Source: Patescibacteria group bacterium (GTDB lineage Bacteria; Patescibacteriota; Minisyncoccia; Phycocordibacterales; PALSA-1337). Taken from it: a DNA stretch of 64,000 bases. Of the stretch, positions 1,072 through 38,484 are shown piece after piece (position 1 is the first letter of the stretch; every line of letters begins with the position of its first letter). The translations under genes and the position numbers were made by a program. Under the pieces are notes generated by a model. That model was not told the DNA's origin. It saw only the letters and a program-made list of their open reading frames with translations, and ran no database searches. Location: contig JAZKBV010000005.1 in NCBI GenBank assembly GCA_040388415.1, forward strand, positions 3,364-67,363. The letters run 5' to 3'.

Positions 1072-4000
1072 ATGAAAAAGCTCTACCTATCTCTATCTGT
1101 TGTTATTTTTGTTGCATGTATTGGGAATAGTGTGGCAAAGGCAAACAGTACATGGGTCTCAGCGAGTGGTCTGACGTCAGCATCAAGCGAATTAGTCTTA
1201 TACCGTAATACCAATGATTTTGGTCAAATAGGATCGCTACAAAAAAGCAGTGATACTGGTAAAACATGGACAACTCTCACTGGCGCAGGTTCAAGGGCTT
1301 GGAATGTGATTCCTCATGCTATAGCGTGGTCAGCGGATGGTCAAAAAGTGTGGGCGTCTGTGTGTGCTACACAATGTCCTGAATACGTATATCACTCAAC
1401 AGATGGAGGTACTACATGGGCAAGTTCAACTGTTCTTGGTCTGAGTCAGTTTTGGTGGAAAATTGGCTCATCTGCTGATGGCACAAACCTCATCTTGCAG
1501 ACTACTGGCTCGACACTTGTGTCTACGAGCTCAGGTGCAACGTGGACTACGGTGCTCAATAGCATCGGTGGTGGAACGGTCGCAATCTCACCTGATGGCG
1601 CAACGATGGTTTCGACTAATGACAAAAACAGCGATGGAAGCATACATATTTCAACTGATTCGGGTGCGACTTGGACAACTGTCTCGAGCATTACGAGTAA
1701 AGGGGACTCAGCAGCGATTGGGAATAATGGCATTATATACATTGGTACTGTAGACGGTTATGTATATCGATCATCCGACTTTGGCTCGACATGGACTGCA
1801 CTGAGGTTTGCCGGAATGAATAATTGGGATGATTTAGTGGTATCTGATGATGGTGTTCATATTCTTGCTCTTGCCAATGTTGCACTTCACTACTCTGATG
1901 ATAGCGGAACCACGTGGTATCAAGGTGCAACTGGCGGCCAGTGGAAGCTCTGGTATGCAGCTGATGGTTCCAAGGCATACTACAGCGCTGATTTATCATA
2001 CGTACCTATTCCAGCAATCACCGCACAAAGCGTATCAAGTATAACGGCGACTGGCGCAACTCTTAACGCAACTATCGCGAATGATTTTGCCTTTCAATAT
2101 TCAACAAGCGCAAAAGGATTTAGTTATGGTGCGACTAACGCGTATGGCACTGATGCATCTACTGCTGGTACGTTTACCTCTGGGGCATATAGTCAAAGTA
2201 TAAGCGCGCTGACCTGTAATACAACATATTTCTATCGTCCGTACGCAACAAATGCCAACGGCACCTCATACGCCACGAGCACATATTTTACAACGTTGCC
2301 CTGTGCTGGATCATTTGTCATAAATAAAATATCAATCCCAACCTCAGGCTCAACTGTTGTGCAGTTGACTGGTAATGCAACTGGATGGACGCCAGGTACT
2401 CCAGGTAGCCCAACATTTACAGTTTCAGGAGTTAGTGGCGCTTCTATTTCGTCACAGACAGTTACTGATGCAACTCATGCATCTGTCACGATAACAACAG
2501 GTACGGCTACTGGCACATTGACCATTAGTGATCCTGCTAACGTAACATCAAAAACTGTAAATGTTGTTCTGGCTACAGACGTCATTGCAGCAAATAATAG
2601 TCACGTTATATATTCTCCTGGCAATACGTATGATAGCGGTTCAGGAGTGCAGATGATGCATACCGGTAGCTCAGCAAAGTTTGTCTTTACGGGTAGCACG
2701 CTCAAACTGGATGCTGATTTGAGCTCGCTTATCGGTGCAGGCAATCCATTTGCAAATTATCCTTTTATTGACTGGAAGATTGATGGTGGGGTGTGGCAAC
2801 GTGCACAACTTCAGCCAAGTTCTGGGACAAGTACACAGGTGATGACGCTTGCCAGCGGTTTGTCGAATAGTAGTCACTCGGCACAAGTGTATTATGAACA
2901 GGGTGGCGTCGAAGATAGTTGGCCGGCAACTTCATTGGTGAAGATTACTGGATGGGAAATCGAATCAGGCAAATCAATTTCAACTCCAACATATGCCGAC
3001 GGTCTCCGACCAAAACGCATGATGATTCTTGGTGACTCTATCACTCGTGGTTACTCAGCTGAGACGGACTCAAGTGGAGTCGATCATACAGCTGCAGGAC
3101 AAACATATGTGCAAGATAGTTGGGGTATGCTTTTCGGTCAAAAGCTCGATGCAGAAGTGGGCATAAAGGCCTACAGCGGACAGGGTTACCGAAAGATAGG
3201 TGCAGCACCGTACGTGACTGGTACATTTGATTATGTAGATTCACGCCACGCTCAACCACTTCCGTCAGATCTCGATTACCTTGTTATCGCTCAAGGAGCA
3301 AATGATTATCAGACTGATATCACTACGTCAGTTAAAGAGTTGTTGACGTTGGCCCGCGCAGAGGTTGGCGCGAATACAAAAATATTTTTGATGCCATCAT
3401 TTTTGACGCTCAGTGACCCGAATACTAATCCTGAGGTTACCGCTCAGATACAGGCAGGATTGGCGGCGTATCAAGCGTCGTATCCATCTGATAGTAAAGT
3501 TTATTTTTTCAATATTGGAGATATATTTGGCGCTGTTGATCCGTATCATTCGACTACGTACATGTTGGAAGACATTCATCCGAACCATGCCGGACATGCG
3601 TTACTCGCAACAGATGTCGCTAATATTGCCGTCGGATACGCGCCGACAGTTATATCGTCGGTAGCAACTTCATCAGGAGCTACGAGCGTCACAATCACGT
3701 GGAATACAGATAGATCTGCTGATAGTTCGGTCAATTATGGCACGACCGCGTCGTACACTTCTTCGTCTACGTATTCCTCAGCAAAAACACTTACGCATTC
3801 AGTGACAATCACTGGCTTGAGTACTTCACAGACATATCATTATCAGATTGTTTCTGTTGATACTGCTTCGTCGAGTGTGTTCACAACTGATGCCACATTT
3901 AGAACCACAGGAACTGCGGTAAAGGCAACATTGGCAACTTCTTCACCTACATCTGTCACATCATCAGGAGTTACATTGAATGCAAGTATTACTGCTGATG

Positions 4001-25031: not shown

Positions 25032-26234
25032 ATGAAAATGATACTTATGGCAGTCATGCTCTCATGCATGGTCTGCACTTCACACGCGGAATACGAGATT
25101 CTTGTTACCGATACCGGCACCAATGAATCGTGCCTCTATGGCATCAACACGCAAGGCTATGCAGCAGGGTTCACTATGGTCAATGGACAAAGCATGCCCT
25201 GGATGATCACTCCAGAACTGGGGCAGATCATCCTCCCTGCTCTGCCGGCTGGATCGACGCAACATGGCATCGGGTATGGTGTCGATGATAACTATAATGT
25301 GGGTGGAAGCTATGGCGGTTACTTCAACGCTACAAGCCCTTTCCGCATCAACAACGGCATCGGTTGCGTATGGAAGTGGAATGGCAGTGTCTTCACGCCA
25401 ATCGAGTTCGGCAGTCGTCCCACGACTATTCGCTCCATGAACAATGGATGGTTCGCTGGTCAACAATCGCCAGGTGACACCGGCTTCACTGATAACGCAT
25501 ACACCTACTTCGGGTTTGGCACGGGAAATCCGTCTTTCCTGAATGGTGTCAATGCGCTCGGCGATGCGACCGGGTATGGCTCTCCTGCCAATACGACGAT
25601 GATCCCTATGTTCGTCAAGAACAATGGCTCAGGCTACAGCGTCACCTATGCGCCAGGACCGTATAACTGGAATGCATATAGCTCAGGAACTGCTATCAAT
25701 GTTCACGATGAGATCGTCGGAGTCAATGCCACAAGCGGCTTTTACTGGAATACGTCGAACAATGCCGTTCAGTTTTTCGGCAATGTCTGCTACGGCATCA
25801 GCGATTCAGGAACGATCGTCGGGAACCTGAACGGCCATGCCCATCAATGGAAGAAAGTGAATGGCATCTATGTCGGCACTGACCTCAATACGCTCATCAG
25901 CGATACGAACCTCGTCCTCGAGACGGCGTTCGGCATCAATGCAAGCGGACGGATCGTCGGCCGGTGCTTCGACAAGAAGCAGAATGCCTTCCATGGCTTC
26001 ATGCTTGTACCTGCGACGCCCGTTGGTATGAGTCTGCGTCCTGATTCGCCCGGGTATGCGCGGTTGCGGTGGCAGTCACAAGCCAATCGTGACTACTCTA
26101 TCCGTATCAGCACTGATCTCAAGCACTGGGTCACGTATCCAGGAGTCTATGAGTCAACTGATTCCACTGCTAACGTTCTCGTTCCGACTGACGAGGCCAA
26201 GTTGTTCCTCAGGGTTTTTGATGTCACGCCGTGA
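25032..26234 (+). CDS. Secreted HAF-like extracellular repeat protein
   Basis: Signal peptide is present. Repeated G(I/V)N..G.IVG units are seen (GINTQGYAAG, GVNALGDATG, GVNATSGF, GISDSGTIVG, GINASGRIVG) together with NAFHGFML. Local GC is higher than in the flanks. Confidence 0.45.
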   Translation: MKMILMAVMLSCMVCTSHAEYEILVTDTGTNESCLYGINTQGYAAGFTMVNGQSMPWMITPELGQIILPALPAGSTQHGIGYGVDDNYNVGGSYGGYFNATSPFRINNGIGCVWKWNGSVFTPIEFGSRPTTIRSMNNGWFAGQQSPGDTGFTDNAYTYFGFGTGNPSFLNGVNALGDATGYGSPANTTMIPMFVKNNGSGYSVTYAPGPYNWNAYSSGTAINVHDEIVGVNATSGFYWNTSNNAVQFFGNVCYGISDSGTIVGNLNGHAHQWKKVNGIYVGTDLNTLISDTNLVLETAFGINASGRIVGRCFDKKQNAFHGFMLVPATPVGMSLRPDSPGYARLRWQSQANRDYSIRISTDLKHWVTYPGVYESTDSTANVLVPTDEAKLFLRVFDVTP

Positions 26235-26248
26235 TACCGAAAACGCAC

Positions 26249-26284
26249 AAACCCGCTGGTTTTTATCAGCGGGTTTTTTATTTT
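26249..26284 (+). terminator. Rho-independent terminator
   Basis: The hairpin aacccgctggtttttatcagcgggtt is followed by a T6 run. Confidence 0.65.
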
Positions 26285-26293
26285 ATTGGTTAC

Positions 26294-26656
26294 TTACCAC
26301 ATCGCTTTCCACTCGCCGGTCTCAGGATTAAACTCAGTCAAATTACGGCCACCTATCCATTTGTCACCCTCGTAAAATTCCATGCTGACGGCGGTCTCTG
26401 CGCTAGACATTTCGGGGTAGGTACCCTTTCTTCGGTACTCATAGTGTATGCTGTCGCCGATCTTATCGCCGGCAACTTTTATTTCTAGCAGATAGAGGCC
26501 AGCAGCATCATGCGCTTCACGTAGAACCTCACGCTCTTTGCCCTCAGTGAGCCTAGCCATGATTTCTAGTACTTCTTCACGGTTTGGAATCAGCTCCTGT
26601 GGTCCTCGTTCAAATTGTCCGGCAAATGCGATCATGTGGAGTATTATATCACTCAA
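26294..26656 (-). CDS. Hypothetical protein
   Basis: A 120-aa ORF with no motif. Confidence 0.4.
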   Translation of the reverse strand: MSDIILHMIAFAGQFERGPQELIPNREEVLEIMARLTEGKEREVLREAHDAAGLYLLEIKVAGDKIGDSIHYEYRRKGTYPEMSSAETAVSMEFYEGDKWIGGRNLTEFNPETGEWKAMW

Positions 26657-27984: not shown

Positions 27985-28042
27985 GGGTTGGGAGTTAGCG
28001 GTTAATGAGGATATTATAGCGCTTTTCGAATACAGATGATAA

Positions 28043-30349
28043 CTACATTTTAATCAGATTTAATGCTTGTTGAACATATGTTTTTAACTCAATATCATTA
28101 ATTGGTGCGCTTCTAGAATTAGTATTATCATGATGATATTTTTTTGAATAATTGTTTAATTCTTTTAGTTCTTGTGCATTCGATGTGAATAATGAAAATT
28201 GTGGATCTATGGGTTTCATTTCAATAATTTTGATCATTTCACCCAAATTATTTGCCTTAATTAAACTACTCATAAATTTATAACCTAAATAGCCTTCGAT
28301 TACACTTCTAATTTTTGATGCTATTTGACGTTTTTGATCATCATTTTGAGTGCCATTAGTGAGATAGTTTTCTAAAATGTAAATACTTTTTACAAAATCA
28401 CTAGAAATTTCCTTATCAAAATCACATTCCTGGATGACATTCGTAGAATGTGCCCTAGAAATTGAAAGGGTTTTAACATTTAAATTTAATTTTAAGCGTT
28501 GAACAGCTTTCTTCATGTCGCAAGCAAAAAATGGGTTATGCGTAAGTACGATTAATTGTTTGACCTTGGGAACTAAATCAGACAAATACTCTACTGTTCG
28601 TTGACTACGGCCTTCATCATGACTAGTTAATGGATCATCAAACACGACAATTTTCTTGGACAGGTCTGGGTCAAGCTCTAATCTAGCAAGAAAAAAAGCT
28701 AGAGCTAAGGAATTTTTGTCCCCTTCACTTAGTGCCTGCTCGAAGCAAATATCATGACCGTTGTTTTCAAATTTAACTAGTTCACCATCAAGAAAAAGTT
28801 CATATTCAGCAACTGGATTAATTGAGGCCCCAACATATCTTCCATTTACACTTTGTCCAAGCATAAAGTCAGTTCCAATCTTCTTTAGATAACCATTAAT
28901 TTTAGGTGCATATTGAGCAAGTATTGTAGCAGTATATCCTTCTAATTCTACCTTCTTAGCATCTTTTTCTTCATTTAATTTTTTTGTTGCAATTAAAACA
29001 GCTAATGCAGCGTCGCAAAGTTTAATATGTTCAGTGGTGAAACGACTTTGAATCACTTTTATCTTTTTAATATTTTCAGAAATTAATTTTGGGTCAGATA
29101 TTTTTTTACTTCTAATAGACTCAATTTGAATATTATGCTTTTCTACAACAATATTATACTCACCTACAAATTTATTTAAACCATCAACGATACTTTTCAG
29201 ATTACTTGAACAATCTTGTGTAGTTAATGGTTCACTAATTTTCCTTTTTAGACATGTATTTATCAAATCAAAATCTTTTTGCAAAATAACAAGACTGGAG
29301 ATATCTAATTTTGGTCTAGGCGTAAGCTGTATATACTGGTTCCAAAATCCGTCTAGTTCCAGGTTAATTGCATCACTTCTTTCCCAACCACTTTGAATTT
29401 TTTCAACAGAAAAATTACCTGCAACTGAAGCTACTTCTCTAATTTTTGAAATTAACTCTTCGTATTCTTTATTAAAATATTGTCTATAAGACTCAAGCAC
29501 ATCGCCGGCGTTTTTTAAATCTTGCATACAAAAGGGACAGTTGTTGTCAGTAATATTTTGTAGACCAAATTTTAACCATTCCTCCACTTCACCAGTGTTT
29601 GAAAATTTTGATTTGTGTTCATCAACCAAATCTAAAAATTGCTTCTGAATTGAGGTAATAGTTGTACTACAAATATTTTTAACGTCTTCGAGTGCAGGAA
29701 TATACTTAATTTCCTCAAATCTTAAGTATTTTTGTTTTGAATGAATTAAATTACTTGCAGCAGAAGTCCTAAATTCATTTTCCGCGCTACTTAACTGAGA
29801 ATCAATTGTTAGATCTGGTTTTAAGTTTAAAAAGTCTCTAAAAGAGATCAATCCTCCTGTAATGCGCTCAATATCCTTCTCAAAGCCACGATTTTGTTGC
29901 ATTAGTTCGCTAATGTCCCTTTTGCATCTTTCAATTTCTGATGTTAATACAACCCCTCTCGCACCGACAATAAATCTATGGAGTTGTTGCTTATGGTCTG
30001 GAGTAATATCAAGTCCAGAATAGATGTTCTCATTTACAAAGAAAGTATCGAATATTTCTATGTCAGAATAAGGTGCTGTCCAGCCTGTCGCAGTGTAACT
30101 AAATGTAACACCTTCGCCTTCAAACAATACTTCTTGGCCAGTGTTACTACCAATACTTTTCCTTTGTTGAATTATGCCTGGGTTATTATCACGCAGTGAA
30201 CGCAAAACAGATGTCAAAGTTGTTTTTCCTTTTCCATTTTCTGCGTATAAAAGCACAACTTTCTCCAATAATCCATTCCAGCCATTTTTTACGGAATCAA
30301 AATCATTAAATCTACCGACGCCACATATTTTGAGAATTTTCTTAATCAT
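28043..30349 (-). CDS. RloC/PrrC-like protein: a Rad50-like ABC ATPase with a coiled-coil insertion and CxxC zinc hook, fused to a C-terminal HEPN-type anticodon-nuclease-like domain
   Basis: Walker A is [12 protein letters not shown]. The CxxC zinc hook is [10 protein letters not shown], about 230 aa into a heptad-rich insert. The ABC signature is [19 protein letters not shown], Walker B/D-loop is [14 protein letters not shown] and the H-loop is LIVLTHN. The C-terminal R-x3-E...H motif reads KIRSVIEG...[10 protein letters not shown] is very low, about 30%. The start codon overlaps the stop of the upstream gene by 1 nt. Confidence 0.65.
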
Positions 30350-30981
30350 TATCGTTCGTTTGAGATAAATATTTCCTTTCCAAGATTATTTGAATCGTAG
30401 CTATGTGAGACTGGAACGTGCAAAATACGCAACCCAACACCTTTCATTATCTCATTTACAATTTGATCCCTTTTTATTCTATCCCACCTTGAGTGTGAAC
30501 GATCGTCTAATTCGATGGCCAAATATGGTTTGTATGCTTTGTCGTATAAAACAAAGTCGATCGATTTAGCTTTAATCAGGTTAAAATCGCGATAATTTGT
30601 CCAATGCTCATTTGAATCAATTGGTTTAACTATTCCAGATAGTGGAACCTGTGACTCAATGTGATAAGTATTACCAACTATGTTCTCTAAAATCTTTAAA
30701 AATTCTTTTTCAGCGTTTGTCACTAAACTTTCTTTTAGAATATAACGTGATTCTGTTGCAACTTCAGTATTTTGTTGTGGGCTAATACTGCTAGTTGGGG
30801 TTATGGTTGTTGCCCGACTTAACTTAAGGTTCGGTCGAGTATTATTTCTATTTTTAAACAATTTCCAGCAATATCTAAAAAAAGAAATTAATATAGTAAA
30901 TATAAGACTGATTAGCGCATCGAAAAAGATATCAAGCGGACCGGCGTTCTTGCCTCTATAATATTTGTAATTTCTCGTCAT
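30349..30981 (-). CDS. Membrane-anchored DUF2726-like protein with a restriction-endonuclease-like fold
   Basis: The N-terminal TM helix is LDIFFDALISLIFTILISFF. The C-terminal block is SIDFVLYDKAYKPYLAIELDDRSHSRWDRIKRDQIVNEIMKGVGLRILHV, which follows the D...E-x-D/H pattern of DUF2726/NERD-type nucleases. Low GC. Confidence 0.55.
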   Translation of the reverse strand: MTRNYKYYRGKNAGPLDIFFDALISLIFTILISFFRYCWKLFKNRNNTRPNLKLSRATTITPTSSISPQQNTEVATESRYILKESLVTNAEKEFLKILENIVGNTYHIESQVPLSGIVKPIDSNEHWTNYRDFNLIKAKSIDFVLYDKAYKPYLAIELDDRSHSRWDRIKRDQIVNEIMKGVGLRILHVPVSHSYDSNNLGKEIFISNER

Positions 30982-31008
30982 TTTTTGATAAATTATAGCA
31001 CCGTACCT

Positions 31009-31929
31009 TTATTTTTTCTTAATTCTAGCAGCAATGGCATTTATAAGTATCTCCTTGAGTTCTTTCTTGGTCGAATATTTATAACACTGATAGTGTCTAA
31101 CGTAAAATTCTGGGGGAAGCTCATCTTTACAGACATAGATTGTTTCAATATTTAAGCCAAACGCAAAACCAGCCTCAAAAAATACACTGCTTCTTGTTCC
31201 TGTAAGATCAACAACCACAAAACGACTTTTTCTTATTTCACCTAAAGCCTTATCCATAATTTTTTCAGGGAAAAGACTATCTTTAATACAGACTGGCATA
31301 TATCCTGCCTCAGTAATTGCTTCTTCCATTGCTGTAATGCTTTCATTCATTGATTCATCAAACCACGCAGCAATAAAACCCTGTTCTGATTCAGAATTTT
31401 CCTTTCCTAACTTATTTCCAAGCTCCCATCCATTGGCAGTTAACGTAATTTTGTAGGCGTATAGTCCATCTGTATTGCTCAGAGGTGCCCAGTGAGCTAG
31501 ATTTTTTTGTTCGAGCATTTTAATCAGAGCCTCAAACTCTTTAGGGTTTTTTGCATAAGCTAAAGGGTAATCATTTTTGCAGTTTACTTCGGTTGATTGA
31601 CCAAAATATTCAATTTTAGCTTTTAATCTCTGCAATAACTTATTTGCTTTTTCGGCGATATCATTTGATTTTGGTACTGGATAGCTATTTTTAAGTGTTT
31701 CAATATTTGTTGTTAAAAACTCTGGAATTTGGCGTTGCTCGTTCAACTCACGAACTAAACCAGATAAAAGATATGCATCATTAGATTCAGGTGTATATCT
31801 TAAACATTCATCGCTAATTTTATATTCACCACAACGAGGACAAATTATTCTGTAAAGATCCCGACTGCTTATGGGGTATATTCCCACATCTTCACCACTT
31901 TTATGACACAAAAAACATTTGGTTGGCAT
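31009..31929 (-). CDS. Zinc-ribbon protein with a C-terminal TIR-like/nucleoside 2-deoxyribosyltransferase-like (flavodoxin-fold) domain
   Basis: The N-terminal CxxC...CxxC is CFLCHK...ICPRCGEY. The C-terminal strand/helix pattern FIAAWFDES...MPVCIKD...FVVVDLTGTRSSVFFEAGFAFGLNIETIYV has a conserved Glu at the position of the TIR/NDT catalytic glutamate. Low GC. The start codon lies 1 nt after the uvrB stop. Confidence 0.45.
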   Translation of the reverse strand: MPTKCFLCHKSGEDVGIYPISSRDLYRIICPRCGEYKISDECLRYTPESNDAYLLSGLVRELNEQRQIPEFLTTNIETLKNSYPVPKSNDIAEKANKLLQRLKAKIEYFGQSTEVNCKNDYPLAYAKNPKEFEALIKMLEQKNLAHWAPLSNTDGLYAYKITLTANGWELGNKLGKENSESEQGFIAAWFDESMNESITAMEEAITEAGYMPVCIKDSLFPEKIMDKALGEIRKSRFVVVDLTGTRSSVFFEAGFAFGLNIETIYVCKDELPPEFYVRHYQCYKYSTKKELKEILINAIAARIKKK

Positions 31930-31930
31930 A

Positions 31931-34030
31931 TTATTTTCTTTTTATCTTTCCACCCTTCCTCCCCGGCACACCCATCTTCTCCTCCAACTTAAAGAGCTCA
32001 TCACGTATGAGTGCCGCGGTCTCAAAGTCGAGTGCTTGGACGGCTTCAGCCATAGCTTCCTCCTTCATGCGGTAGAGCTTCTTTGGATCAGTCTTGGCGA
32101 GCTCCTCATCAATCTTGATGAGCTCGTTGACGGCCTTGTCGTGATCACTCTTCAACTGGTCGGTGATGTCGTGAATAGCCTTGATGATGGTCTTTGGCGT
32201 GATGCCATGCTTGGTATTGTAGGCCACCTGGATAGCACGACGACGATCGGTTTCGCGGATGGCATTCTTCATGGAGTCGGTCATATTGTCGGCATAGAGG
32301 ATGACACGCCCCGCAGAGTTACGTGCGGCACGACCGATGGTCTGGATGAGACTGGTCTCTGAGCGGAGGAAGCCTTCTTTGTCGGCATCGAGGATACCGA
32401 TGAGGGTCACTTCGGGCAGGTCGAGACCTTCACGGAGGAGGTTGACGCCCACGACGATATCGTACTTCCCTCTGCGGAAGTCGGTCAGGATGGTGATGCG
32501 CTCGATGGTCTTGATATCGCTGTGGAGATAAGCGGCTTTGATTTTTTTCTCTTTCAGGAACTCTGATAGATCCTCAGCCATCTTCTTGGTCAAGGTCGTC
32601 GCAATGACACGCTCATTTTTGGCTATCACACGCTCAGCCTCTTCGATGAAGTCAAAAATCTGACCCTTGTATCCTTTCTCGGTATTTTCGCGAATCGGTT
32701 TGATGTTCACCACAGGATCGATGAGACCGGTCGGACGGATGACTTGCTCAACGACATTTTGTGATTCAGCTACTTCATACTTACCTGGTGTGGCTGAGGT
32801 ATAGACCATCGGACCGACACGTTCGAGGAACTCCGGGAATTTGAGCGGTCTATTGTCCTTGGCAGACGGCAAACGGAAACCGTGCTCGATCAGAGTCTCT
32901 TTGCGTGAGGCATCGCCGGCATACATGCCATTCAACTGTGGGATCGTGACGTGCGACTCATCGATGATAGTCAGGAAATCAGGATTGCCCTCTTTGTCTT
33001 TGGGAAAATATGCGAGCAGAGTATCAGGCGCTTCACCGGGCATCTTGCCACTGAAGTGACGTGAATAGTTCTCGATGCCGTTGGTATAGCCGATCTCTTT
33101 GATCATGGAAAGGTCATACTTGACGCGACGCTTCAGACGCTCTGCTTCCAGCATCTTTCCTCCCTTTTCAAGTGCTTTCAGTCTATCGACAAGCTCGGCT
33201 TGGATGGTCTTGTACGCTTTAGCACTCTGTTCATCAGAAGAGATGAAGTGCTTTGCCGGGAAAATAAAGATCGCTTCATGTGATGCGCGCACCGAACGAC
33301 TGACGGGATCGAGTTCGGTGATGAGCGAGATGATCGCCTCACCTTTATTGTTCGTGTCATACTCAATGCGATAGATCGTCTTTTCATTGACCGGCATGAC
33401 TTCGAGCATATTGCCGATGGCGCGGAAATTGCCGCTCTTGAGGTCAGCAGTCGTACGTTCAAAATGAATGTCGATCAATTTGCGAATGAGCTCAGCACGC
33501 GATAGTTCCATACCGACTTTGAGTTTGAGATTAACCTTTTCATATTCTTCCGGACTACCCAAACCGTAAATACACGAAACTGATGCCACGATGATGACAT
33601 CTTTGCGTGTGAGGAGCGCCTGAGTGGATGCGTGACGGAGACGTTCGATCTCTTCATTGATCATGGCTTCCTTTTCGATATAGGTATCTGATGAAGGGAT
33701 ATATGCCTCTGGCTGATAGTAGTCATAGTACGAAACGAAATAGTGCACGGCATTATGCGGGAAAAATTCGCGATACTCCTGTGCGAGCTGTGCGGCCAGG
33801 GTTTTATTATGAGCGATAACAAGAGTTGGCTTGTTGAACTGGGTGATGACATTGGCCGCCGTAAAGGTCTTGCCTGAGCCAGTGACACCGAGGAGGGTTT
33901 GCTTGGTAAAACCTTTCTGGAGGCCTTCCACAAGCCCAGAAATAGCCTTTGGTTGGTCACCTGCAGGTTTGTAGGGCGTCGCGAGTTGGAAGAGAGGTTT
34001 AGCTGACATGGGGGTAAATAGTAGGCCCAT
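31931..34030 (-). CDS. uvrB: Excinuclease ABC subunit B
   Basis: The N-terminal motif is QLATPYKPAGDQPKAISGLVEGL. The Walker A motif is LLGVTGSGKTFT. The C-terminal UVR motif is EAVQALDFETAALIRDEL. The true start may be the internal Met at about 34009. Confidence 0.9.
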   Translation of the reverse strand: MGLLFTPMSAKPLFQLATPYKPAGDQPKAISGLVEGLQKGFTKQTLLGVTGSGKTFTAANVITQFNKPTLVIAHNKTLAAQLAQEYREFFPHNAVHYFVSYYDYYQPEAYIPSSDTYIEKEAMINEEIERLRHASTQALLTRKDVIIVASVSCIYGLGSPEEYEKVNLKLKVGMELSRAELIRKLIDIHFERTTADLKSGNFRAIGNMLEVMPVNEKTIYRIEYDTNNKGEAIISLITELDPVSRSVRASHEAIFIFPAKHFISSDEQSAKAYKTIQAELVDRLKALEKGGKMLEAERLKRRVKYDLSMIKEIGYTNGIENYSRHFSGKMPGEAPDTLLAYFPKDKEGNPDFLTIIDESHVTIPQLNGMYAGDASRKETLIEHGFRLPSAKDNRPLKFPEFLERVGPMVYTSATPGKYEVAESQNVVEQVIRPTGLIDPVVNIKPIRENTEKGYKGQIFDFIEEAERVIAKNERVIATTLTKKMAEDLSEFLKEKKIKAAYLHSDIKTIERITILTDFRRGKYDIVVGVNLLREGLDLPEVTLIGILDADKEGFLRSETSLIQTIGRAARNSAGRVILYADNMTDSMKNAIRETDRRRAIQVAYNTKHGITPKTIIKAIHDITDQLKSDHDKAVNELIKIDEELAKTDPKKLYRMKEEAMAEAVQALDFETAALIRDELFKLEEKMGVPGRKGGKIKRK

Positions 34031-37613: not shown

Positions 37614-37961
37614 TTATTTCATTTTATTTCGATTTTTGATTTTACCGTAAAGCCAGCCAATCAGTGCTCCTATTATGAACCAGTAAATACTAAAATTAAT
37701 TAGTAAACCATAGATAATCGGAAGATGCGTTAGAGGATAAAGATTAATTCCTACCAAGTAAAGTGGATAAAGTATAGCTGTAGTTATACATAAACCAAAT
37801 ATTTGTCCGATAATTACATTAGGAAAAAAAAGTCCTATTAGGTCACTATTGTCATGTGGATGTAAAACACCTGGAATACTGATTAAAATCAGAGATAATA
37901 TGATGTTAAATATTGCACATATAATTCCAAATTTTAACCAGTATCGTTTATTTGTTTGCAT
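37614..37961 (-). CDS. Small membrane protein, paralog of 38239..38478
   Basis: A 115-aa ORF with three or four TM helices. The C-terminus is IGALIGWLYGKIKNRNKMK. The DNA motif ccgtaaagccagccaat is shared with 38239..38478. Confidence 0.5.
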   Translation of the reverse strand: MQTNKRYWLKFGIICAIFNIILSLILISIPGVLHPHDNSDLIGLFFPNVIIGQIFGLCITTAILYPLYLVGINLYPLTHLPIIYGLLINFSIYWFIIGALIGWLYGKIKNRNKMK

Positions 37962-37980
37962 TAAAATAGTATTAATTAAT

Positions 37981-38232
37981 TTACAATCCCAAACTACTTA
38001 CGATCGCCGCGAAGAGTATCAGTACCCCACCCTCGATTTTACGAATACTTAAATCTCTTTTCGTCTGCTTGAAGTGATAGCTGGCATCATGGTTGAGCAT
38101 GAGCACTACGCCAAGGACGATACTGACGAGGAGGAACAGGTTAAATAAAGACGAAAATATTGATTGTGTACTGACGAAGTAGATTGCAAGTCCAAGGAAA
38201 AGGAGTTTTAGGATGATTTCGATGATTCTCAT
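37981..38232 (-). CDS. Small membrane protein
   Basis: An 83-aa ORF with two TM helices. Confidence 0.4.
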   Translation of the reverse strand: MRIIEIILKLLFLGLAIYFVSTQSIFSSLFNLFLLVSIVLGVVLMLNHDASYHFKQTKRDLSIRKIEGGVLILFAAIVSSLGL

Positions 38233-38238
38233 GGTGAT

Positions 38239-38478
38239 TTAGTTAGTTTTACTAATTTTACTTTTAATTTTTCCGTAAAGCCAGCCAATTAGGAAGCCGA
38301 GCGGGATTAATGTCCAGAAAAAAATTATAACGACACCAACTCCAATATAAGCTAAGGTAGCATCAGGATTTCCAGATTTATAAATTACTGAACACAAAAT
38401 ACTAACCAGTATAAATATTGCATAAATAATTGCTCCCACTTTCAATCCAATTTGTCCGTAATCTTTTGAGATTTGCAT
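38239..38478 (-). CDS. Small membrane protein, paralog of 37614..37961
   Basis: A 79-aa ORF whose C-terminus is LIPLGFLIGWLYGKIKSKISKTN. Confidence 0.5.
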   Translation of the reverse strand: MQISKDYGQIGLKVGAIIYAIFILVSILCSVIYKSGNPDATLAYIGVGVVIIFFWTLIPLGFLIGWLYGKIKSKISKTN

Positions 38479-38484
38479 ATAATT

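Follow-up and report, generated by a model that had tools for sequence, protein, structure and literature searches.

Three genes between uvrB and a Band_7 gene, found in a 64,000-nucleotide stretch of contig JAZKBV010000005.1 from a Patescibacteria group bacterium (the window, read at its full length), most probably form an accessory island of about 3.9 kb with a low guanine-plus-cytosine (GC) content. At a probability of about 0.7, this island occupies a hotspot at the 3' end of uvrB in one Patescibacteria lineage, and its genes spread and act independently and are probably expressed by read-through from uvrB. The genes are called here P1, P2, and P3. P1 encodes an RloC-type ATPase with a HEPN-like nuclease tail, P2 a DUF2726 protein, and P3 a protein with a Zn-ribbon, a winged helix, and an N-glycosidase-fold domain. 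An initial annotation, made from the sequence alone, had proposed the trio as a novel three-part immune module. The comparative analyses do not support this proposal; the trio looks like a stack of independent passengers. The same annotation had taken the genome for a member of the candidate phyla radiation (CPR), and the source is indeed a Patescibacteria metagenome-assembled genome.

Sister genomes were found by exact look-up of the closest P2 relatives. The contig L169 (Ca. Pacebacteria) has the same gene order as the window: uvrB, three low-GC genes, Band_7, cmk, a response regulator, cysS, and corA. Its UvrB and Band_7 proteins are 95% identical to those of the window. The three L169 island genes (GC 0.32-0.33) encode an AlbA_2 protein (340 amino acids, aa), a DUF2726 protein (69% identical to P2), and an unknown 276-aa protein; the AlbA_2 and DUF2726 genes overlap at start and stop. 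Nucleotide homology to L169 stops at window position 31952, 20 nt short of the uvrB stop, and restarts at 28021, 22 nt beyond the P1 stop. Within the island, only the catalytic half of the DUF2726 gene (30755-30403) aligns to L169, at about 82%; the islands of L171 and L172 likewise match the window's island at the nucleotide level (about 82%) in the DUF2726 catalytic segment alone.

The other sister contigs carry further cargo at this site. L172 contains uvrB (93% identical), a 174-aa gene, a DnaJ-domain protein, a DUF3267/M50-like protein, DUF2726 (68%), and a partial convergent open reading frame (ORF). In the overlapping contig L171, the convergent gene encodes a 413-aa reverse transcriptase (L171:1290-2531; RVT_1, 1.9e-16), which could be a defense-associated reverse transcriptase or a retron. 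L172 also has a 101-nt direct duplicate of the uvrB 3' end (2690-2792 and 3411-3513, 89% identical), which lies about 620 nt downstream of the true uvrB end and brackets the 174-aa low-GC gene; it resembles the trace left by a cassette that was inserted at the end of uvrB. In L176, a serine recombinase, a methylase, GmrSD, DUF2726, and an SNase-domain gene lie beside uvrB. Since different low-GC cargo is found between flanks that are up to 95% identical, the uvrB 3' end acts as a cargo-exchange hotspot. DUF2726 is the resident element of this hotspot, and P3 and P1 are passengers of this genome.

The co-occurrence of the three genes was surveyed with each family as anchor. All ORFs within about 6-8 kb were searched with hidden Markov models (HMMs) built from the three family alignments. 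The 361 anchored loci included 140 for P3 (80 genome, 57 viral, and 3 others), 134 for P2 (80 metagenome, 45 viral, and 9 look-up), and 87 for P1 (7 look-up and 80 viral). Neither the full trio nor any P2-containing pair was present in any of the 361 loci. P2 and P3 relatives were absent from all 87 P1-anchored loci, P1 and P3 relatives from all 134 P2-anchored loci, and DUF2726 relatives from all 140 P3-anchored loci. A second member was seen at a single P3-anchored locus (1/140; L038), where an AAA_13 gene distant from P1 (55 bits) lies inside a type I restriction-modification (R-M) operon. The neighborhoods of the homologs, which the initial annotation had named as the place to check its proposal, show essentially no co-occurrence. 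The L038 AAA_13 protein was also considered as a tail-less ATPase with the P3 homolog as its effector; this was rejected because its C-terminus carries R-x3-E and a downstream His.

No DUF2726 or P3-like neighbor was found at the four nearest P1 relatives examined. Three of them are solo genes (P0122, P0147, and P0140), with P0122 adjoining a Panacea toxin-antitoxin gene and P0147 adjoining BrnT and MNT/HepT genes; the fourth (P0133) lies between hsdS and hsdR. Likewise, no conserved partner was identified among 120 immediate neighbors of P3 homologs searched with Pfam and PADLOC. No family appeared there more than three times, and the recurrent ones were type I and type II R-M subunits, AAA_21, AlbA_2, and Mrr. 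The depth of the closest relatives is also unequal: 69-71% identity for P2 (in sister CPR genomes), 65-68% for P3 (in other contigs), and at most 37% for P1, the last among 5.8 billion proteins searched. These differences indicate separate histories. Schlafen/AlbA_2 proteins take the position of P3, 5' of DUF2726, in L169 (5982-7004), lie next to a P3 homolog in L003 (3133-4110), and account for 3 of the 120 neighbors, which suggests that AlbA_2 and P3-type genes draw on a shared pool of island cargo.

An unlikely alternative is a modular two-gene system with DUF2726 as its constant effector and an exchangeable upstream partner (P3 here, AlbA_2 in L169, and the DUF3267/M50-like protein in L172), in which case the RloC-like gene would be an unrelated neighbor. 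DUF2726 alone is kept in all three sister islands, a different same-strand gene always precedes it, with a start/stop overlap in L169, and the AlbA_2 genes beside P3 homologs suggest interchangeable island cargo. However, P2-family genes stand alone among ordinary, housekeeping-type genes in L175 and L177, P2 and P3 relatives are never neighbors in the loci anchored on either family, and the upstream genes have no common domain.

Some points weigh against the reading of the island as independent passengers. With a 1-nt overlap and a 27-nt gap, the three genes leave almost no space between them; they also share a low GC and have no internal terminator-like site, so they are almost certainly co-expressed here, and cross-talk between them could be invisible to comparative data. 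In L038 the RloC-like gene lies directly beside the P3 homolog in the same orientation. The functions of P1 and P3 are read from homology and fold. Most P2-anchored metagenome loci are short, with an identity to P2 of only 33-43%, which limits the power of this part of the survey, and exact-protein look-ups of close P2 relatives were added to offset this. Neighboring genes were called by a crude longest-ORF method.

The shared strand, packing, and composition, together with the adjacent pair in L038, are also the observations in favor of one newly assembled defense system, formed by the trio or by the overlapping P2-P1 pair. In such a system P3 would detect infection or produce a nucleotide signal, with the RloC-like tRNase and the DUF2726 nuclease at the membrane as joint effectors. 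This explanation is quite improbable, since neither the trio nor a P2-containing pair recurs in the survey and the four nearest P1 relatives examined lack both partners. Moreover, unrelated genes flank DUF2726 on both sides in the sister genomes, the two L038 genes are both guests of an hsd operon with an AAA_13 gene distant from P1, and tight packing is usual in these small genomes, as shown by the AlbA_2/DUF2726 overlap in L169. A non-immune island, in which P3 is a salvage deoxyribosyltransferase, P2 a DNA-scavenging membrane nuclease, and P1 an SMC/Rad50-like repair ATPase serving the nucleotide economy or repair of a reduced genome, would fit the dependence of Patescibacteria on scavenged nucleotides, the database label of the P3 relatives ('nucleoside 2-deoxyribosyltransferase'), the wide and at times housekeeping-type distribution of P2 relatives in Patescibacteria, and the adjoining repair gene uvrB, but it is very improbable because P1 has a HEPN RNase fold with an invariant R/E/H set rather than a repair nuclease partner, the P3 family is patchy, carries a Zn-ribbon and a winged helix before its catalytic domain, and occurs in prophages, plasmids, and R-M operons, and the island content, unlike that of housekeeping genes, varies between genomes whose flanking genes are 95% identical.

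The layout of the island is given in Table 1. The three co-oriented minus-strand ORFs described by the initial annotation were confirmed. As to their spacing, the 27-nt gap between P3 and P2 is correct; the reported ATGA overlap is instead a 1-base overlap of P2 and P1 (TAATG), and the 1-nt gap does not fall between island genes but separates the uvrB stop (31931) from the P3 start (31929). The island was rightly called AT-rich against its flanks. The GC values of the three genes are 0.321, 0.336, and 0.347, compared with 0.501 for uvrB and 0.523 for Band_7; across the whole island they are 0.31-0.36, compared with 0.49-0.52 in the flanks and 0.444 in the window overall. This is the deepest GC trough of the window. 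No integrase is visible in the island, and a search of the window found no attachment-like direct repeats flanking the island above chance. A terminator scan identified no terminator-like site on the coding strand between uvrB and Band_7, inside the island included. The single good promoter-like match at the island edge is that of Band_7, and its -10 half sits in sequence conserved with L169. Thus, the island is probably co-transcribed with uvrB. The hsdM, hsdS, and hsdR relatives are absent from the entire window, as the initial annotation had observed. No tRNA or tmRNA gene was detected by ARAGORN in window 1-64000.

Table 1. Features of the island and its borders in window coordinates.
Feature	Position	Strand	Description
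Low-GC accessory island, ~3.9 kb	28022-31951	minus	Bounded by uvrB 3' end and Band_7 promoter region; limits from L169 nucleotide homology
Promoter-like site TTATCA-18-TATAAT for Band_7	28013-28042	minus	Just 3' of P1 stop; consensus match only
P1	28043-30349	minus	768 aa; RloC-type ABC ATPase, zinc hook, and HEPN anticodon-nuclease-like tail
P1 HEPN-fold C-terminal domain, residues ~650-768	28046-28402	minus	R681, E685, H739, H740
P1 H-loop H604	28538-28540	minus	Invariant
P1 ABC signature LSEGD (540-544) and Walker B VVFDD (568-572)	28634-28732	minus	G543, D544, D571, D572 invariant
P1 zinc-hook motif CPFC, residues 271-274	29528-29539	minus	C271, P272, C274 invariant; F273 at least 90%
P1 Walker A NGKGKTT, residues 38-44	30218-30238	minus	N38, G41, K42, T44 invariant
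P2	30349-30981	minus	210 aa; basic N-tail, hydrophobic helix, and DUF2726 (Vsr/DUF559-like restriction-endonuclease fold)
P2 DUF2726 catalytic domain	30370-30732	minus	E91, Q111, D142, E157, D159, D160, H163, R168, R171, D172 invariant
P2 hydrophobic segment, residues 16-34	30880-30936	minus	Putative membrane anchor; 19 residues, Kyte-Doolittle mean 2.18
P3	31009-31929	minus	306 aa; Zn-ribbon, winged helix, and NDT/MilB/TIR-like N-glycosidase domain
P3 C-terminal NDT/MilB/DNPH1/TIR-like Rossmannoid domain, residues 183-302	31024-31383	minus	E231, D241, T243, E252 invariant
P3 middle domain, putative MarR-like winged helix, residues ~112-175	31405-31596	minus	Suggested by weak profile matches and the model
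P3 Zn-ribbon C5, C8, C30, C33	31831-31917	minus	C30/C33 invariant, C5/C8 at least 90%; short strands in model
uvrB	31931-34030	minus	Conserved core gene; final 20 nt lie within the variable segment

The P3 protein was analyzed by structure modeling and profile searches. The AlphaFold model has a predicted local distance difference test score (pLDDT) of 89. The best PDB matches in Foldseek were nucleoside 2'-deoxyribosyltransferase (NDT), the CMP N-glycosidase BcmB, and DNPH1/Rcl, followed by TIR domains. Together with the four conserved Zn-ribbon cysteines, these matches agree with the initial call of a Zn-ribbon protein with a TIR/NDT-like domain. P3 has both the fold and the catalytic-type Glu after the central strand that define the NDT-MilB-DNPH1 group, and in a weak profile match to Rcl its E252 is aligned with the Glu of the enzyme's GYELG stretch. 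The match to Pfam Nuc_deoxyrib_tr (PF05014) gave 21.6 bits, below the cut-off of 28.8; some members of the P3 family do carry a precomputed PF05014 match. The PADLOC TIR effector model covers residues 225-293 only, and NCBIfam gave no match to P3. As judged from the model, P3 is a protein with a predicted TIR/NDT-like fold, the NDT/MilB side being slightly favored. The middle domain matches MepR/MarR chains weakly (E about 0.4-0.5, profile positions 121-203), and it has a helix-helix-hairpin layout in the model. P3 was also considered as a DUF4062/Swarozyc member and rejected, as no Pfam DUF4062 match was found at E<=1.

The P3 family, whose well-conserved members measure about 310 aa, is large and widely distributed. 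At E<=1e-30, an exhaustive profile search identified 3,760 representatives of clusters formed at 50% identity, and at E<=1e-10 their number rose to 8,788. These proteins span many phyla, and nearly all of the 150 best matches are about 300-320 aa long. Members were found in 57 viral or proviral contigs and on Bacillus mycoides plasmids, where they adjoin integrase fragments; the family also matches phrog_16139 (function unassigned) at 3.6e-30. No dedicated Pfam or PADLOC model exists for it. Literature searches did not find a published description of this architecture, although one may exist. The most similar full-length P3 locus of the genome scan is L002 (Paceibacterota, 50% identical); a 998-aa protein directly upstream of the P3 homolog there (L002:3590-6586) matches the C-terminal part of PADLOC Dsr1 (2.5e-17).

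In 3 of the 80 genome loci, P3 homologs are located within type I R-M operons. The gene order in L012 (5149-12530) is hsdM, P3 homolog, hsdS, and hsdR. A related operon in L038 (3510-13099) has hsdM, the RloC-like gene, the P3 homolog, hsdS, and hsdR. L063 (3860-11844) represents an unrelated hsd lineage, with the P3 homolog after hsdM..hsdS and before hsdR. This operon slot is the niche that is classically held by PrrC. A tentative proposal, speculative at this stage, is that the P3 family is a large undescribed class of stand-alone immune effectors, which, like PrrC, can serve as a back-up suicide module in type I R-M operons, halt or kill an infected cell through hydrolysis of NAD+ or nucleoside monophosphates, and in this lineage are swapped at the uvrB 3' end and expressed with uvrB. 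The substrates of such effectors might be modified ones, possibly such as the hydroxymethyl-pyrimidine nucleotides cleaved by MilB and DNPH1.

P1 matches Pfam AAA_13 (2.6e-33), with the match extending to profile position 704 of 713, and PADLOC PDC-S06 (HMM PDLC04895; 2.2e-69, residues 1-706). PDC-S06 appears in the literature as a predicted single-gene PADLOC candidate, for which no experimental test was found. NCBIfam gave generic ABC matches only; many P1 homologs are named 'wobble nucleotide-excising tRNase' by JGI (COG4694). Motif conservation was scored in a 42-sequence family alignment. All motifs named by the initial annotation are present, and most are invariant or nearly so, including L540 and S541 of the signature. 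An insert of about 500 residues separates the Walker A motif (38-44) from the signature (540) and holds the CPFC motif. In the tail, R-x3-E (R681/E685) and HH (H739/H740) are invariant, and residues 622-768, modeled by AlphaFold from 25 family fragments, gave a pLDDT of 92.4; the HEPN tail, whose absence would have pointed to an ordinary ATPase, is present. A PDB sequence search for a solved PrrC or RloC structure matched PtuA ATPase heads only. By its domain layout, P1 is a new, distant member of the RloC family, with a nuclease function predicted from homology. The initial annotation expected RloC proteins beside R-M genes. This does not hold for RloC: prrC is always R-M linked, and rloC rarely (Klaiman et al. 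2012, PMC3458546). Thus, the missing hsd genes are normal here.

P2 was correctly recognized as a DUF2726 protein behind a hydrophobic N-terminal helix. Its match to PF10881 (3.6e-25, residues 84-204) has 88.6 bits, against a gathering cut-off of 24.7. The residues invariant in the family make the active site look intact. Basic residues flank the hydrophobic segment on both sides, so that the positive-inside rule favors neither topology. P2 relatives with 45-71% identity are numerous, and most of them are from Patescibacteria. No PDB relative was found by sequence search. DUF2726 has been grouped with Vsr and DUF559 as PD-(D/E)xK nucleases with links to mobile elements (Steczkiewicz et al. 2012, PMC3424549), and described as a restriction-fold DNase fused to abortive-infection-type N-terminal domains (Anantharaman et al. 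2013, PMC3710099).

Based on these comparisons, each gene probably acts in its own way after transcription of the island by read-through from uvrB. In P1, most probably as in published RloC, the ATPase/zinc-hook head would keep the HEPN RNase silent, and DNA ends or damage during infection would switch the ATPase. The freed nuclease would then cut tRNA anticodon loops, which would stop translation and lead to abortive infection; no R-M partner would be needed. P3 most probably acts alone. Its Zn-ribbon/winged-helix half would sense a nucleic acid or protein cue, and on this trigger its NDT-like half would hydrolyze NAD+ or a nucleoside monophosphate at the N-glycosidic bond, so that replication is starved. 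P2 is probably a DNase held behind its hydrophobic N-terminal helix, and the candidate functions are restriction of incoming DNA at the membrane or DNA scavenging.

Two other sites were noted in the window. The first is a second variable spot only a few kb from the island, between Band_7 and cmk (25032-26656), and contains a plus-strand gene of 400 aa and a minus-strand gene of 120 aa, which have no counterpart in the otherwise syntenic L169. The other (37614-38484) is a low-GC stretch (0.34-0.36) that separates the halves of a split transketolase; besides an ORF of 115 aa for a multi-helix membrane protein, it includes about 520 nt in which no ORF reaches 90 aa.

These results remove a false lead, as the combination of RloC, membrane nuclease, and TIR/NDT protein appears to be a chance stack of cargo and not a system. 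They also document a defense-type hotspot at the uvrB end in Patescibacteria, where few immune genes have been described, with cassette exchange visible between genomes whose flanking genes are 95% identical. The island contains a new, distant RloC-family member (P1), a lineage-typical DUF2726 nuclease (P2), and a member of a large uncharacterized NDT/TIR-like family (P3). The P3-like family and the hotspot are the parts worth following. The family is very large and unnamed, and its fold and genomic habits resemble those of known abortive-infection effectors; it is a candidate single-gene effector.

P1 shares with RloC the order of an ABC ATPase head, a long CxxC zinc-hook insert, and a nuclease domain at the C-terminus in which Arg, Glu, and His are conserved, as well as a length of about 770 aa. 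RloC has an internal zinc-hook/ATPase silencing switch and is frequently a single cargo of mobile elements; the lack of linked R-M genes is usual for it, and its coiled-coil/zinc-hook insert is the feature that sets it apart from PrrC (PMC3458546). P1 differs from known RloC proteins in its low identity (37% or less) to any protein searched, in its Patescibacteria host, and in its doubled histidine (HH, both invariant). PrrC and P1 are members of one superfamily, both having an ABC ATPase and the HEPN anticodon-nuclease triad, and the P1 relative P0133 is placed between hsdS and hsdR as prrC is. PrrC is much shorter, about 400 aa. In addition, PrrC has no coiled-coil/zinc-hook insert, and its gene invariably lies within a type Ic R-M locus (PMC3458546), whereas P1 has the hook with CPFC and is neighbored by DUF2726 and Band_7, with no hsd gene in 64 kb. 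P2 resembles the DUF2726/Vsr/DUF559 nucleases in its above-threshold PF10881 match and its conserved acidic and His residues. It differs in its N-terminus, formed by a basic tail and a hydrophobic helix, and in the concentration of its subfamily in Patescibacteria.

Two systems come closest to P3. Retron Ec86 has an NDT-like effector that depletes adenine derivatives (10.1101/2023.08.16.553469), and Swarozyc (DUF4062) is a single-protein TIR-like NADase (10.64898/2026.05.01.722283). Like them, P3 combines in one polypeptide a separate sensing module and an NDT/TIR-class N-glycosidase fold, whose catalytic-type Glu is conserved, and it is encoded by a patchy, horizontally spread gene in defense-island-type contexts. 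Unlike the retron effector, P3 has no retron reverse transcriptase or multicopy single-stranded DNA partner; unlike Swarozyc, it has no Pfam DUF4062 match; and its sensor part (Zn-ribbon and winged helix) is N-terminal. The closest solved folds of P3 (MilB, BcmB, and DNPH1) are nucleoside-monophosphate hydrolases, and its substrate may therefore not be NAD+. Finally, the island resembles the known 3'-end integration hotspots and defense islands in its variable low-GC cargo between 95% identical core genes, and in the duplicated target-gene end of a sister genome. It differs from them in having no visible integrase or flanking repeats, and in that its cargo begins 1 nt after the uvrB stop and is probably expressed from the uvrB transcript.

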